DNA from: a virus
Lineage: Duplodnaviria > Caudoviricetes
Strand: one strand, 5' to 3'
DNA length: 39,459 nucleotides
Virus record (IMG/VR): IMGVR_UViG_3300031953_000057
Coordinates: 1-39,459 of that record
Part shown: positions 885-29,531 of the stretch, one piece after another
How the letters are laid out: every line of letters begins with the position of its first letter
Numbering within the stretch: position 1 is the stretch's first letter
Translations under genes and position numbers: made by a program
Notes under the pieces: generated by a model
The model's input: only the letters and a program-made list of their open reading frames with translations
Database searches by the model: none
What the model was told of the DNA's origin: nothing

Positions 885-1526
885 TCCGTTGCGCGCTTCA
901 GCCTTACCTTCTCGCCGTTCACGTTTGTGTCGCCACTCCATGACCGTCCGCCTTTGCTTTCGCAGGTTGCAGTGGGCGCACGCTGGTACGAGATTCCCGA
1001 CTGAATGCACGCCGCCCCGAACCAGCGGAACCACGTGGTCCCAGTGGAAGGCAACTAGCTTTACGTCGCAGTAAGCACAGAGCCCGCCGCGGCGATTGAA
1101 CTCGCGCCGCAGATCGTTCCGCGTGACACGGAACACTCCGTTGGCCCGCTTCCGCGCCCTTCTCGCTGCGTCATATATGCGCCGTTGCTCGCGGTCCCCG
1201 TTGCTCAATGCGTAGCGGCATTTATTCGAGCATGTCCCGTGGCGTTGATCTCTCGGGGTGAAGGTGACCGAGCAGTACGCGCATTTTCTGTCGGGAACCA
1301 CGAACTCGCCGAATAGAGTCTGGTACTTGTAGTGCCTGCGGCACCAAGACCGGGCGAACTTCTTGCTGCCGCACTCTGGGACAGAACACTGGGCCACCGT
1401 CTCGCGCGACCGCCATTTACGGTCCCTGCAAAGTTTGGAGCAGTACTTTGCCGAGGCGCGCACGGCCAAGAACTTAGCCGAGCAAACGTGGCATTCAAAA
1501 GTCTTCAGGGTTGAATTGACTGACAT
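882..1526 (-). CDS. free-standing HNH homing endonuclease with N-terminal Zn-ribbon repeats
   Basis: CxxC/YCSxxC repeats; CAYC...WDHVVPLVRGGVHSVGNLVPACAHCN; start set at ATG 1526 after GGGAGG. Confidence 0.9.
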   Translation of the reverse strand: MSVNSTLKTFECHVCSAKFLAVRASAKYCSKLCRDRKWRSRETVAQCSVPECGSKKFARSWCRRHYKYQTLFGEFVVPDRKCAYCSVTFTPRDQRHGTCSNKCRYALSNGDREQRRIYDAARRARKRANGVFRVTRNDLRREFNRRGGLCAYCDVKLVAFHWDHVVPLVRGGVHSVGNLVPACAHCNLRKQRRTVMEWRHKRERREGKAEARNG

Positions 1527-1668
1527 GGCGTCGGGCCTCCCTGCGCTCTCGCCGGTGCGTTCTTCGTTTGATTGCTTTGATGACGCCGGCTTTGTGTGTG
1601 TAGCAGAGGATGTGTCGCCATTTGGTGTAGGCGTCTTGTTCGTCAGCGTTGACAATACGACGTGGCAT
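1495..1668 (-). CDS. 57-aa basic phage protein (MPRRIVNADEQDAYTKWRHILCYTHKAGVIKAIKRRTHRRERREARRH...)
   Basis: Hand-translated; TGATG coupling to the upstream gene; below the ORF-track size cutoff. Confidence 0.7.
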   Translation of the reverse strand: MPRRIVNADEQDAYTKWRHILCYTHKAGVIKAIKRRTHRRERREARRHVSQFNPEDF

Positions 1669-3850: not shown

Positions 3851-3951
3851 GATCAGGATCCCTGCCTTGATATTGGCGAATCAGGTCTACAGCAGTGAGC
3901 AGAGGCAGCAGACGCACCCTAAGCGCACCTGTTGATCTGCATACTCACGCG

Positions 3952-4022
3952 CTGAGCCACGAGGAATCGAACCCCGGTCTGCGGTTTTGGAGACCGCCGT
4001 GCTACCACTGCACCATGTCCCA
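3952..4022 (-). tRNA. tRNA-Trp(CCA)
   Basis: D arm GTGC/GCAC, anticodon arm GCGGT-CTCCAAA-ACCGC, T arm CGGGG-TTCGATT-CCTCG; acceptor stem has an A5-G68 mismatch; CCA end not encoded. Confidence 0.85.
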
Positions 4023-17060: not shown

Positions 17061-17369
17061 TTAGGGGGAAGGTGGTTCCGAGAAGGGTTCTCGCACGATG
17101 GGCGGGAAGAAGTTCGCTAGCCCCAGTTCGCGCTTGTCGTATTCGTGGGCGCGGATGAGAAGTTCTTCAGCGGTGAAGTTGAACCGCTGGCTCGTCTGGC
17201 CCTCGTAGATGAAGTCGCTCGCCCACACCGGAGCGGAACTAATCCGGTAGTCAGCGAAACCGCCCAGTAGATAAAGTTCCAGAGCGCCGTACTCAATCGC
17301 CGCTTCGATCAATATCTCCTCACTGATGCTCTTCATTACCAGCATCTGGTCGTAAAGATCGCGGCTCAT
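17061..17369 (-). CDS. hypothetical protein
   Basis: ATGA coupling with the excisionase. Confidence 0.7.
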   Translation of the reverse strand: MSRDLYDQMLVMKSISEEILIEAAIEYGALELYLLGGFADYRISSAPVWASDFIYEGQTSQRFNFTAEELLIRAHEYDKRELGLANFFPPIVREPFSEPPSP

Positions 17370-17584
17370 GCGCTCTGCCCCCTCGTTGCGGGGCGTTCGG
17401 TGATGCGGTCAATGTACGAGTCCAGTTCGGACTTGCGGTACTTGACGCGGCGACCCTCACCAACAGGTGTGATCTCTTTTTGTTCGCGCAGGGTGTCGAG
17501 TTCGCGGAGGGAGCCAGAGATGTAAAAGGCTGCAACCTCGCGAGTCATCAACGCGGGCGCAAATTCGATGCGCAGGTTGTTCAT
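17366..17584 (-). CDS. xis: excisionase (HTH_17-like)
   Basis: LMTREVAAFYI...G.GRRVKYRKSELDSYI; follows cro. Confidence 0.75.
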   Translation of the reverse strand: MNNLRIEFAPALMTREVAAFYISGSLRELDTLREQKEITPVGEGRRVKYRKSELDSYIDRITERPATRGQSA

Positions 17585-17805
17585 GCTGACGCCTCCGAAA
17601 ACCATGAGGCGGTTGTTACGTTTAGTGCCGAGCTGAGACGACGAAGCTCGGCGACGGACAAGTTTCCGTCGCCGAGTAATCTTCTTTCGAGTGTGGGATA
17701 TGCAATGCGAGCTTCGGCAGCTAGGCGCTGCTTACTGATCGCGCGTTCTTGGCGGAGGGCATCGACTCTTAGGCCGATGTCGTCTGCGTTTGTTTGAGTT
17801 GCCAT
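17581..17805 (-). CDS. cro: Cro-like XRE regulator, leaderless
   Basis: ISKQRLAAEARIAYPTLERRLLG HTH; ATG 6 nt after the -10. Confidence 0.85.
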   Translation of the reverse strand: MATQTNADDIGLRVDALRQERAISKQRLAAEARIAYPTLERRLLGDGNLSVAELRRLSSALNVTTASWFSEASA

Positions 17806-17811
17806 ACAGGG

Positions 17812-17903
17812 AGTATGGCTCCCCATTTGGGGAGTGTCAAGTCCAAAAGCAAACTTTCCCCAAATTGGCCAACTGTTGCCAAGCGGGGATTAGCGGGTAA
17901 CCT
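17812..17903. promoter_or_regulatory. immunity switch: lytic promoter, operator, repressor promoter
   Basis: - strand TTGACA(17835-40)-17-CATACT(17812-17); palindrome CTCCCCA-TT-TGGGGAG 17819-34 in the spacer; + strand TTGCCA(17876-81)-16-TAACCT(17898-903). Confidence 0.8.
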
Positions 17904-17910
17904 ATTTCGT

Positions 17911-18156
17911 GTGAAAGAAGAAATAGTCCGAGATCCGTACAACACGGCGGTCGCATCAGTATTGAATGATGCCTACAAGCGCCTGAATTCCCCAATGACC
18001 CGCCTGGTGCAAGCCACGGGGAAATCGAAAAACACAGTCCTGCGGTATCTAGCCGGTGAGCGCGATATTCGTGTTGTAGAGCTTAGGAAGCTCGCGAGGG
18101 CCTTGGAGCTGTCCCTTGGTGATGTTTTCACTGAGGCCGATCGACGCGTTGAGTAG
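17911..18156 (+). CDS. immunity repressor (81 aa, XRE HTH only, leaderless)
   Basis: MTRLVQATGKSKNTVLRYLAGERDI HTH; divergent from cro; no peptidase domain. Confidence 0.85.
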   Translation: MKEEIVRDPYNTAVASVLNDAYKRLNSPMTRLVQATGKSKNTVLRYLAGERDIRVVELRKLARALELSLGDVFTEADRRVE

Positions 18157-18258
18157 TTCAATGACTGGTATCCCCAGCGCCAACGCGAGACGCCGCACAT
18201 CCCCAATGCTCATTCCCTCGACTGGGCATTGACCCGAACCTTTATTTCTTCCCACCAC
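18049..18258 (-). CDS. putative antirepressor resembling the XRE C-terminal helices
   Basis: GGGAGG RBS 7 nt before GTG; MSIGDVRRLALALGIPVIELL aligns by eye with repressor IRVVELRKLARALELSLGDVF. Confidence 0.55.
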   Translation of the reverse strand: MVGRNKGSGQCPVEGMSIGDVRRLALALGIPVIELLNASIGLSENITKGQLQGPRELPKLYNTNIALTG

Positions 18259-18282
18259 TTTATTTCCTCCCGATTAACGGGG

Positions 18283-18305
18283 AGCCTACTCTCGTGCACA
18301 GACAT
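18283..18305 (-). promoter_or_regulatory. RecA-NDp/PafBC-type DNA-damage promoter
   Basis: aTGTCTGTG-cacgagag-TAGGCT versus consensus tTGTCRgtg-8nt-TAnnnT. Confidence 0.6.
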
Positions 18306-18409
18306 GAGGACGGCACAAATTGGGTCGTGGCGGGAATGCTGTACCACTTTGTTTGTGTAAACCGGGGACGCTCAGAACTGTCCCCCAAACAAGTCCCCAC
18401 AAAGGGGGA

Positions 18410-19627
18410 CTATTCGGCGCGGCGGTCAGACAGCTTCTGCATCGCATCAACAGCATCCTTCGAGGACACGTGCTGATAGTTTCCGGTCACACCTGGAGAC
18501 TTGTGGCCGACGACTTCACCAATGGTTCGATCGGGTACGCCGGCAGCCGTGAAGTCAGAGATCGCCGTGTGTCGTGCCCAGTGGGTTGTGACACCTTCGG
18601 CGGCAACTTGTGCATCAGCTAGTAGCGCTTTCCACTGTTGTTGGTCGTGGCGCGAATCTATAGGCATGCCGTCACTGTCGGGCCATAGAAGGCCGTAGGG
18701 GTTCGGGCGCAGCGATAGTTCGGCTAGGTGTTGTTCGAGCGCTGTGAGCAACGATTGGGGCAGCGGGAAGGTGCGTGCCTCGTTGGACTTCGGGGGCAGC
18801 AGTATGAACCGGCCTTTGAGGATGCGGTGTTCCATGCCATCGGGAATGATTAGTTGTTTCGTGGGGCATCGTCCGGCAGATTTTGCGCTGCACTCCCCCT
18901 CATGTCCGTGCTTGTAGTTCGCTTCGACCATGTTCCAGCGCACAGTGAACAGGCCAGCTTGGAGGTCTACGCTGTCGATGGTTGCGCCGAGCCGTTCACC
19001 TTGCCGAATACCTGCGTAGAGCGACACGAGCCACTTGGAGCCATCGGGACGACTCGCTGCGGCTTGGAGGATGCGCAGGGTTTCTTCAGGGCTTAGGGTG
19101 CCGCGTGTAGTCTTGCCAGCTTTGGGTCGGTGGATGTCTTTGGTTACGTTCGCGGTCACCAGACGTTCGAAGCGTGCGGCCTCGAACATGGATGACATTA
19201 CGTTATGCGCTTTGAGCTGTGACGCGGATGATAGCCCTTTGGCTTTCATTTTGTCGTAGATAGCCCGCAGGTCAGAGGGGCGCACTTCTTTGAGGTTCTT
19301 GCGTCCGATCGCGGGCAGTATCCAGTTGTTGGTGTACGAGCGGTACGTACGGAATGGTTGCGGCTTCATCTTGGGTTCGCAGATGTTCGCTAACCAGTAT
19401 TCGCTCCATGCGGCGACAGTCTTGTTGCCCAGTGGTGAGCCGGTGCTGTCGATCTCGGTTTGGAGTGCACGGAGCTTGTCTCGTGCTTTGGATTGTGAAC
19501 GCGAGCTGACACGCTTCTGTTTGCGGCCACCGTTGTCGTTTAGTCCGACATCAACGACACCTATCCAGAGGTCGCGTTTTTCGTCATGGTAGAGACCGCC
19601 TTCACCTGATTTACGGATACGTGGCAT
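18410..19627 (-). CDS. int: tyrosine integrase
   Basis: GIRQGE (R), PKS (K), HWARHT (HxxR), VGH, terminal Y; N-terminal GEGGLY arm-binding domain. Confidence 0.95.
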   Translation of the reverse strand: MPRIRKSGEGGLYHDEKRDLWIGVVDVGLNDNGGRKQKRVSSRSQSKARDKLRALQTEIDSTGSPLGNKTVAAWSEYWLANICEPKMKPQPFRTYRSYTNNWILPAIGRKNLKEVRPSDLRAIYDKMKAKGLSSASQLKAHNVMSSMFEAARFERLVTANVTKDIHRPKAGKTTRGTLSPEETLRILQAAASRPDGSKWLVSLYAGIRQGERLGATIDSVDLQAGLFTVRWNMVEANYKHGHEGECSAKSAGRCPTKQLIIPDGMEHRILKGRFILLPPKSNEARTFPLPQSLLTALEQHLAELSLRPNPYGLLWPDSDGMPIDSRHDQQQWKALLADAQVAAEGVTTHWARHTAISDFTAAGVPDRTIGEVVGHKSPGVTGNYQHVSSKDAVDAMQKLSDRRAE

Positions 19628-19678
19628 TCTCTACTCCTTCTGGTTGACAGATCGCGTCTTCACCTTTGCCGCGCATGG

Positions 19679-20257
19679 CTAGCCCTGTTCGTTGTTCGGC
19701 AGCCCCGCGTGAATAATGGTCTTGGGGTCGTTGAACACCTTGTGCCTCATTAGCGCGGTTGCGCTGTAGGTGCGCCCGATCAGCTTGGCCACTTCCGATA
19801 TGGGCCTAGATTCATCGGATACCACTTCCAGCTCCCACCCCGTCCACTCGAAACCGTGTCGGATCGCGGATGGTAGCGAGGCTTCTTGAAGCTTTTTCTG
19901 GCTCTGGGTGCGTGTCCGCTTTGCTTTCTCTGGGTTATTCCCGCGCCATCCCGAAGTGTATGAACGGAACCTTTCTGGCTCTCGCTCGTAACGCTCTTTG
20001 TGCTGTGCGGCAATCTTCTCGCGGTTGTTTGCGTACCGCGTCCGAGCCGCCTGACGCGCAGCTTCTGGGTCTGCGGCGTAGACGCGGCGAGCCGATGCGC
20101 GATTCCGCTCAGGGTTTGCCGCACGCCACGCCTGCCGCTGTGCCGACTTGCATGCCTTGCATACCGTCCGGTGTTTAGGGTGCTGGAAGAAAGCGTCCAG
20201 CGGCTTATCTAGGCCGCATTTGTTGCAGTGTGCTGTAGTCGTTTCGTCGCTTCTCAT
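19679..20257 (-). CDS. Zn-finger/coiled-coil protein with C-terminal Myb/HTH-like domain
   Basis: CNKC...CKAC, NPE repeats, WT..EL...ISEVAKLIGRTY; no HNH catalytic motif. Confidence 0.7.
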   Translation of the reverse strand: MRSDETTTAHCNKCGLDKPLDAFFQHPKHRTVCKACKSAQRQAWRAANPERNRASARRVYAADPEAARQAARTRYANNREKIAAQHKERYEREPERFRSYTSGWRGNNPEKAKRTRTQSQKKLQEASLPSAIRHGFEWTGWELEVVSDESRPISEVAKLIGRTYSATALMRHKVFNDPKTIIHAGLPNNEQG

Positions 20258-28820: not shown

Positions 28821-29531
28821 TTATGCGATGCGTGCCCCTTTGGAGAGGTTGCATCCGAGGTGTGCCGATTGGCAGTTTGAGTAGGAATGAACGCCGCCGC
28901 GTGCTAGAGGTATCCGATGATCGATACTTCGACTCATGGGGTCCGGCGATCTTGCCGAGCGATCAATCGGCTGATCGCATAGCTGGCATATCCACCCGTC
29001 GCGTTCCAAGACGACCTCACGCTCAACGTTCTCCACGAATGCGGCGATCTTTCGCGCTCGGTAGCTTGCCGAAGAGTCAAATGATTTCGATTTGTTCGAG
29101 GCATACCATTTGCGAGTAGCCGCGTTGGCCTCTTCTCGCCCGCGCATTGCAAGGTTGTAGCGATTTATGGATGCTTCGCGCGCCTTAGTGCAAGCCTGCG
29201 AGCAGCAGTAGGTTGCTCGCGTCCGCGGAACGAACTGAGATGAACACTGGATGCAGTGGATCGTTGGGAGTGGGACCACCTCAGGCAGAGGCTTTGCACG
29301 CTTCTTCGATGCGACGCACGCCCGACAGTAAGCACTATTCGTCGTGTAATTCCCGACCCGAACGTCTTCAGAGCACGAGGGGCATATTTTGCGTCCGTCT
29401 CGAATCTCGCCCCTGATGCGGTAATTCGCGTCTCCGTAGCGACGGAATCGCGTGTAGTGCCTGGTGCACCAACCTCGCGCCACTATGCGATCGTCATCGC
29501 ATCCATCGAGCGCGCATGTGCGATTAGCCAT
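28821..29531 (-). CDS. free-standing HNH endonuclease
   Basis: RGWC..HY.R, RDGWICQLC, SIDHRIPLARGG.H...N...AH..CN. Confidence 0.9.
   Translation of the reverse strand: MANRTCALDGCDDDRIVARGWCTRHYTRFRRYGDANYRIRGEIRDGRKICPSCSEDVRVGNYTTNSAYCRACVASKKRAKPLPEVVPLPTIHCIQCSSQFVPRTRATYCCSQACTKAREASINRYNLAMRGREEANAATRKWYASNKSKSFDSSASYRARKIAAFVENVEREVVLERDGWICQLCDQPIDRSARSPDPMSRSIDHRIPLARGGVHSYSNCQSAHLGCNLSKGARIA

Follow-up and report, generated by a model that had tools for sequence, protein, structure and literature searches.

The closest known system to the one described here appears to be AimX/AimC/AimL, the extended arbitrium of Bacillus phages. As described in a preprint (bioRxiv 2025.11.23.689978), AimX is a small antirepressor (29–80 aa) whose gene converges on, and in some cases overlaps, that of a short HTH repressor lacking an autocleavage domain; a cro-like gene is divergent, a LexA site lies upstream of phi106 aimX, and a heterodimer of the antirepressor with the repressor blocks oligomerisation of the latter. 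The window analysed here, a whole 39.5-kb virus record with 56% GC, shares this layout, a small ORF being convergent with a short, protease-less HTH repressor next to a divergent cro-like gene, and a similar mode of action is predicted for its peptide. It differs in its input, a PafBC-type promoter, in the homology of the peptide to XRE helices 4–5 of Cro, and in a repressor that has no separate C-terminal oligomerisation domain. The window would not be a member of the arbitrium family, since neither aimR nor aimP was found beside the module, whose upstream neighbor is the integrase, and no TPR/AimR-like Pfam match occurs among the 75 window ORFs scanned.

A second precedent is Mor of lactococcal TP901-1 and staphylococcal phi13, an XRE protein in the Cro position that is reported to inactivate CI by direct heterodimer formation (PMC11149083; PMC8516035; PMC11323111). 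Mor residues Trp43 and Phe67, and helix 4 and the C-terminal stretch of CI, are described at this interface (PMC11149083), the general region that is also retained by the window peptide. However, Mor comprises a complete HTH protein, is encoded at the head of the lytic operon and also relies on the N-terminal Tyr3 and Tyr5 (PMC11149083), whereas in the window a truncated copy resembling Cro stands apart from cro behind a host damage promoter signature; the peptide is encoded past the repressor 3′ end, and it is cro (17805–17581) that holds the Mor position. SinI of Bacillus subtilis is likewise described as a small helical protein that mimics an oligomerisation element, trapping SinR in a dead heterocomplex (bioRxiv 2025.11.23.689978), yet SinI mimics a distinct domain at the C-terminus of a host regulator, and the pair as described is neither a phage switch nor PafBC-driven. 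Another induction route for repressors without an S24 domain combines an ImmA/IrrE protease with a long-tailed XRE repressor (Footloose gp34/gp35, vB_MoxS-R1 gp2/gp3); it works by cleavage and not sequestration, and none of the loci examined combines it with the peptide module. In coliphage 186, the LexA-controlled antirepressor Tum carries the damage signal to a non-cleavable repressor. The Gifsy and Fels-2 antirepressors are described in similar terms, damage reaching a non-cleavable repressor through a small host-regulated antirepressor (PMC3121763). These systems rely on LexA derepression, whereas the window bears the signature of a positive activator, found with or without a LexA box, the comparison being one of descriptions.

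What appears to be new in the present locus is a predicted damage-induced small antirepressor that combines a PafBC-type input with a Cro-derived peptide, in a module that looks real, mostly unannotated and widespread among temperate phages of soil actinobacteria. Searches of open full texts (among them PMC7617703, PMC11323111, PMC12908700, PMC9030533 and bioRxiv 2026.10.29.762952) turned up no link between PafBC and prophage induction, no phage target of PafBC and no account of this gene, although sites of this kind could be listed in supplements to SEA-PHAGES or PafBC ChIP studies. The module would explain how actinobacterial phages whose repressors cannot cut themselves sense DNA damage and wake. 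It could also be the first target of PafBC known from a phage, and the response may need neither RecA nor LexA. Across loci, its forms grade from a whole XRE gene down to a minimal antirepressor peptide, and the peptide might serve for inducing such lysogens or curing them. The module is directly testable, as 11 cultured phages carry it, ten of which grow on harmless Arthrobacter hosts.

The immunity switch of the window

The window encodes terminase, portal, tail and tyrosine integrase proteins and is the genome of a temperate actinobacterial phage. The portal shares 64% identity with its counterpart in Microbacterium phage Footloose, and the integrase 43% with that of Microbacterium prophage vB_MoxS-R1; because the nearest phage proteins are those of Microbacterium phages, the host is likely a member of the Microbacteriaceae. 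A blastn search of positions 17300–19700 against cultured phages gave no match. The phage genome also contains a tRNA-Trp(CCA) gene (3951–4022, minus strand), as well as two genes for HNH endonucleases and, immediately upstream of the integrase, one for an endonuclease/HTH-like protein (882–1655, 19679–20257 and 28821–29531, minus strand). The switch runs from an excisionase-like gene and cro (minus strand) through the 81-aa repressor (plus strand) to the small ORF and the integrase (minus strand), with the following features:

17366–17605, minus strand: excisionase-like gene, after cro in the early operon (gene calls and domain searches)
17581–17805, minus strand: Cro/Mor-like XRE gene, first in the early operon; likely leaderless ATG at 17805, longest ORF from 17826
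17812–17840, minus strand: Cro (early lytic) promoter TTGACA-17-CATACT (sigma-70 scan), same layout in 7 clade loci
17819–17834, minus strand: palindromic operator candidate between the cro promoter hexamers (palindrome search)
17911–18156, plus strand: short XRE immunity repressor, 81 aa from GTG; five helices, ClgR/C-protein-like fold, no autocleavage domain
18049–18258, minus strand: small ORF, predicted antirepressor, 69 aa here from GTG 18258; last 36 codons including the stop antisense to the repressor
18151–18213, minus strand: conserved core, residues 16–36, aligning to XRE helices 4–5 and closer to Cro (hhalign)
18266–18271, minus strand: Shine-Dalgarno (SD) sequence GGGAGG, 7 nt before GTG 18258
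18267–18284, minus strand: inverted repeat CTCCC...GGGAG, which by prediction masks the ribosome-binding site (RBS) in read-through RNA and leaves it free in RNA from the damage promoter
near 18276, minus strand: predicted transcription start, 6–7 nt past the −10
18283–18304, minus strand: PafBC/RecA-NDp-type promoter; −26 TGTCTG 18304–18299, 10-nt spacer, −10 TAGGCT 18288–18283
18410–19627, minus strand: tyrosine integrase, directly upstream of the damage promoter and co-oriented, a possible source of read-through

The start codons of cro (17805) and the repressor (17911) lie 6–7 nt past a −10-like hexamer and have no SD sequence, so that both mRNAs are probably leaderless. Some 70 bp between the integrase stop and the damage promoter (18340–18421) contain an inverted repeat, a possible terminator or att-related site; this stretch is present in the window and in loci L002 and L037 and missing from L001, L032, L038 and L039. 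An attP at the module is not suggested in L001, L016, L032, L038 and L039, where the integrase stop is too close to the motif, and the attP search found no tRNA near the module in 18 of the 19 loci scanned.

The repressor matches only the XRE/HTH_3 and HTH_26 families of Pfam, and its AlphaFold2 model (pLDDT 92.8) consists of five helices, the protein ending with helix 5, in agreement with the claim of an earlier note on this DNA that these 81 residues include no S24 autocleavage domain. The folds nearest to the model are those of ClgR, restriction-modification controller proteins and mycobacterial XRE proteins; in C.Esp1396I, an XRE protein of this fold, helix 5 is reported to contribute to the dimer interface (PMC2504287). 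The designation 'immunity repressor' is the annotation of relatives in Maja, Shoya, Zucker, Sarge, Eileen and E1. The same note had listed ImmA/IrrE, BRO and Ant domains as missing from the window, and a Pfam scan of 75 of its ORFs indeed found none, nor any S24 domain. Two matches to the HExxH motif occur among six-frame ORFs of at least 60 aa, neither in the HE(L/I)(A/G)H context of ImmA. Thus the window has neither the C-terminal S24 autocleavage domain of a lambda CI/LexA-like repressor nor the ImmA-type HExxH metalloprotease and long-tailed repressor of an ImmA/ImmR system.

Damage promoter signature and conservation of the module

Rereading of the sequence placed the motif TGTCTG-N10-TAGGCT on the minus strand at 18304–18283, and GGGAGG followed by the GTG ORF 18258–18049 downstream of it, exactly where the earlier note had them. 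That note had also assigned the motif to PafBC, and it does match the published consensus tGTCgg(N10)tA(N3)T, in which GTC is strict, the −10 is that of SigA and there is no −35 (PMC8635444), with a single mismatch at a weak position; a sigma-70 scan of 17500–18500 picked up the cro promoter only, the damage promoter having no canonical −35. PafBC is described as activating tGTCgg-N10-tAnnnT promoters on sensing ssDNA, its known targets are host repair genes, and it is reported in almost every actinobacterial species (PMC8635444), so the host is presumed to encode it; an older paper ascribed RecA-NDp to ClgR (PMC3381160). The pattern TGTCDG-N10-TANNNT has its sole match in the window at the promoter of the ORF, which is weak evidence by itself: chance alone would give 0.45 matches, and a match turned up in 35 of 100 shuffled versions.

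The weight therefore falls on relatives, in which the earlier note had proposed to look for joint conservation. Through the repressor, 88 loci were gathered: the window, 15 viral contigs (two of them close to it), 11 cultured phages, 58 contigs from metagenomes and three genome loci, with L014, L015, L017, L018, L031 and L092 left out as duplicates and L091 as a weak archaeal match. The window ORF alone, used as query against viral contigs, retrieved no relative. The set comprised 68 distinct repressor C-termini, and 65 of these had 260 nt of flank (L046, L074 and L081 were left out). TGTC-nn-N10-TAnnnT is present in 58 of the 65 non-redundant loci, the window included, on the antisense strand 101–236 nt past the repressor stop. 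This count speaks for conservation and not for independent origins because the loci are kin: nine are members of the window's clade, and an Arthrobacter-like group accounts for most of the rest. Spacers of 8, 9, 11 and 12 nt were found in 0, 0, 0 and 1 of the 65, the sense strand gave 1/65 and the region further out 0/62, and bases within the 10-nt spacer vary freely (0.1–0.7 bits). A convergent ORF follows the motif in every one of the 58 positive loci, SD-led in 57 and apparently leaderless in one (Propionibacterium phage E1). Motif, RBS and frame are accordingly kept together in relatives, contrary to the decayed HTH remnant that the earlier note would have accepted had they not been.

All 11 cultured Arthrobacter and Propionibacterium phages fetched via the repressor, ten of them Arthrobacter phages, have the module; in their annotation the small ORF is an HTH or hypothetical protein in six and was missed in five. 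Shoya and Zucker encode the 61-aa form, and Sarge and Bauer one of 41 aa. Among the seven motif-negative loci, four have short repressors (L077, L082, L090, L094). L087 is a low-GC outlier; L023 has a long-tailed repressor, no motif and no ImmA in its short flank; and a long-tailed repressor with ImmA was without the module in three of three cases (L093, Footloose, vB_MoxS-R1). At L094, an ORF convergent with the short XRE repressor (about 1366–1527, plus strand) has a helix 4–5-like core and lacks the strict promoter motif. A scan of genome contigs returned two loci, L090 (no motif) and the weak archaeal match L091, and a shallow phylum-wide search, in which about 13 candidates were scored per genome, returned three of 401 genomes, none with the strict motif.

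In L037, L038 and L039 the repressor is only about 45% identical to that of the window and the cro operator is different, while the promoter and the N-terminus of the peptide are the same or near-identical; the module seems to have been swapped between immunity types. In eight Arthrobacter phages an additional HTH gene, divergently oriented to the damage promoter, lies between that promoter and the integrase (L003 3032–3316, L005 3073–3363, L007 1551–1781, L008 1544–1825, L009 1545–1826, L010 1611–1901, L011 1475–1780, L012 1495–1785). Phage Maja (L003 3348–5150) has an annotated serine and an annotated tyrosine integrase, both adjoining the module. In L121 (360–684 and 901–937) a prophage end adjoins a cluster of host tRNA genes (Glu, Asp, Phe); the cluster has the same orientation as the damage promoter and precedes it by about 220 nt, and a possible terminator hairpin separates the two.

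Selection on the small ORF, probable origin of the peptide and its predicted target

On codon-level evidence, the small ORF is a protein-coding gene under purifying selection. dN/dS is 0.23 over the non-overlapping codons 2–33 in seven members of the window's clade and 0.29 over codons outside the overlap in 28 members of the 61-aa form, falling to 0.10 in the helix 4–5 core against 0.39 in the degenerate HTH part that precedes it; shifted frames give 1.2–3.6. That the promoter signature and the gene are real is close to certain. Lengths across loci range from 31 to 78 aa, and since the closest relatives of the window stop at 47 aa, the C-terminal tail and 69-aa length of the window ORF are incidental. 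Similarly, the 108-nt antisense overlap with the repressor 3′ end that had been pointed out in the window is exact there, but its length is not conserved, relatives overlapping by 21–114 nt and mostly by 24.

By hhalign, the peptide profile aligns to repressor residues 43–77, mainly helices 4–5 (probability 66.7, E 5e-5), a possible SinI-type likeness to the oligomerisation region of the predicted target, but the match to Cro is better. Profile matches to Cro and repressor are 69.6 vs 48.6 in the clade of the window; the 61-aa form gives 92.5 vs 16.4 and the short form 95.2 vs 15.8. In pairwise comparison 13 of 5000 shuffles score as well for Cro and 622 of 5000 for the repressor. The resemblance of the core to helices 4–5 that had earlier been noticed by eye thus survives for Cro, whereas for the repressor it is not significant pairwise; likewise, the 'repressor mimic' of the earlier note is homologous to XRE helices 4–5, but with Cro closer in all three ORF subfamilies 'Cro/Mor-derived' fits better. 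Its further remark that the window peptide lacks a DNA-binding HTH is correct, helices 1–3 being missing, and the window ORF has no Pfam or PHROG match. The peptide is best read as a Cro-derived, HTH-less antirepressor of the Mor, AimX or SinI kind. The shortest forms (31–42 aa) keep only the helix 4–5 core, with L142 and L144 starting at helix 4, and L130 and L132 encode near-intact XRE helices 2–5 (E about 1e-7 to the repressor profile); this range suggests a cro duplicate in the course of losing its HTH.

It is fairly likely that this peptide, switched by PafBC, disables the repressor and thereby induces the prophage. Three lines, none of them strong, favor the repressor as the predicted target: co-divergence, a complex model and the Mor precedent. 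Over 32 loci, divergence of the core follows that of the repressor when Cro is held constant (partial rho 0.32, 1/2000 permutations), a correlation that linkage can also explain because the ORF abuts the repressor gene; for Cro the value is 0.02 (769/2000 permutations). The structure model of the repressor:peptide pair that the earlier note had called for passed, though in the weak band, scoring 0.43 against 0.02 for the best control, with runs agreeing in 100% of contacts and a partner pLDDT of 61. Of 157 solved complexes, 116 attain the mark used, as do two of the 215 mismatched pairs, and the weak band (score 0.60 or under) holds 18 of the 157 and both mismatched pairs that passed; because XRE dimers are among solved structures, the pass may show likeness only. 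The model lends weak support to a possible heterodimer of the AimX or SinI type that would keep the repressor off DNA.

The better match to Cro, whose helices 4–5 outscore those of the repressor in all three subfamilies (13 vs 622 of 5000 shuffles), would instead suit a damage-induced inhibitor of Cro, which would poison Cro dimers and alter the turn-down of early genes or favor lysogeny in damaged cells. Such a role is improbable. The divergence of the core tracks the repressor and not Cro (with the confounding by linkage just described), Cro should be scarce in a lysogen, where an inhibitor of it would be unable to set off induction, and neither the Pfam scan of 75 ORFs nor the HExxH scan revealed another route of induction in the window. 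Moreover, the same promoter class drives ImmA antirepressors elsewhere, and Mor, a protein in the Cro position, is itself reported to contact CI with its C-terminus and with residues that precede helix 4 (PMC11149083).

Another possibility, slightly less probable again, is that the transcript acts and not the peptide, antisense pairing or polymerase collision silencing the repressor while transcription runs into the co-oriented cro operon. In its favor, the repressor stop lies within the SD-led ORF at all 57 loci where one was assigned, and no minus-strand terminator-like site is present in 17500–18500; on the other hand, amino-acid-level selection on non-overlapping codons and the conserved SD sequence require a role for the protein, to which a transcript effect may still contribute, and for aimX/aimC a sense–antisense effect is judged in the preprint to be most likely not consequential (bioRxiv 2025.11.23.689978). 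Alternatively, the peptide might act within the damage response on a host XRE protein such as ClgR, or on repressors of co-resident prophages, in line with the likeness of the repressor fold to ClgR and mycobacterial XRE proteins and with the near-identical promoter and peptide N-terminus beside an approximately 45% identical repressor in L037–L039. In all cases found, however, the gene keeps its place facing the cognate repressor, and it co-diverges with that repressor, which makes this quite unlikely. There is very little chance that the gene is a second DNA-binding regulator, as implied by GenBank HTH labels on Maja gp31, Shoya gp38 and Zucker gp41 and by the near-intact helices 2–5 of L130/L132, since the window form and all forms of 31–49 aa lack helices 2–3, the HTH part is the least constrained in the 61-aa form (dN/dS 0.39 vs 0.10), and 0 of 46 peptide members match the Pfam XRE/HTH_3 families. 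Finally, a chance motif beside a decayed HTH remnant, conceivable for a window that in about a third of shuffles would contain the motif and whose ORF matches no known family in Pfam or PHROG, is refuted by its presence in 58/65 loci against 0–1/65 in controls and by dN/dS well below 1, and retains next to no probability.

Damage inputs and the proposed induction route

The description 'LexA-independent' in the earlier note applies to the window's clade and fails for about half of the relatives. The best match in the window to GAAC-N4-GTTC, the core of the mycobacterial SOS box (PMC3381160), has three mismatches, a site with two or fewer is found in none of nine clade loci, and the window promoter thus lacks the SOS box of a LexA-repressed antirepressor. 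Yet a LexA-box-like site with at most one mismatch lies just after the −10 in 28 of 58 promoters, compared with 0 of 58 in the upstream control, and as a second damage signature at the same spot it strengthens the reading as a damage promoter.

A different safeguard is predicted for the window's clade, in which CTCCC at the −10 is able to base-pair with the SD sequence. In folds of the window RNA the SD sequence is unpaired with a probability of 0.32 in read-through RNA and 0.73 in RNA from the predicted start; the clade gives 0.23–0.50 vs 0.73–0.99 in seven of nine loci, the shift being smaller in L036 and absent in L016, and in 48 other loci the values are 0.43 and 0.48. Folding z-scores of the hairpin are not significant (−0.2 to −1.6). 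Since the integrase points at the promoter, an SD-hiding hairpin would insulate a potent gene. The CTCCC...GGGAG repeat was also considered as a repressor operator, but an RNA hairpin is preferred, since the loop length ranges from 3 to 8 nt and the repeat is retained in loci with a different cro operator.

Under the favored reading of a PafBC-switched antirepressor, events would unfold as follows. DNA damage produces ssDNA and activates PafBC, as established elsewhere (PMC8635444), and host PafBC, if encoded as assumed, would switch on the promoter facing the repressor. Where a LexA-box-like site exists, as in many Arthrobacter- and Propionibacterium-type relatives, cleavage of LexA would lift a second lock, while in the window's clade the SD-hiding hairpin would instead keep integrase read-through RNA untranslated. 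The peptide, resembling Cro helices 4–5, is tentatively predicted to pair with repressor subunits rather than with Cro; the cro promoter, with its candidate operator between −35 and −10, would then be freed, excision would follow and the prophage would be induced. Convergent transcription may help, because no minus-strand terminator was found, but is not expected to be the main effect because selection acts on the protein.

The extension of this scheme to a general PafBC-linked induction route is an evenly balanced proposition. A cro duplicate would have moved behind a PafBC promoter and been whittled down (near-intact XRE, 61, 42 and 31 aa) to a helix 4–5 dimer poison, a peptide alternative to PafBC-driven ImmA that would be AND-gated with LexA in many phages, and LexA/RecA-independent and hairpin-conditional in the window's clade. 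Searches starting from the promoter bear on its breadth. In a first scan 17 of 33 matches face an XRE repressor, and 17 of 21 at a GC of 0.54 or more, figures that are partly circular because the SOS pattern came from the study's own loci and about nine of the 17 are phages already in the set or their close kin. A second scan, of viral contigs with the PafBC motif and the published SOS consensus core, gave 27 matches, of which ten face an XRE repressor (two known from the first scan, one a duplicate) and four drive an ImmA-type protease, so this promoter class serves known antirepressors too. A pattern specific to the window's clade had five matches, three true and two by chance.

Several matches lead to other genes. 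In L114/L147 (one contig), L146, L150 and L156 a PafBC-type promoter with an SOS box drives an HExxH protease of the ImmA/IrrE type. Its mRNA appears to be leaderless, since translation would start within the SOS box, some 30 nt after the motif begins. The same combination drives a 49-aa basic low-complexity ORF in L137, where the convergent XRE gene is further away, and, in viral contigs L096 and L134/L149, a conserved 60-aa ORF of beta-rich appearance with no assigned family.
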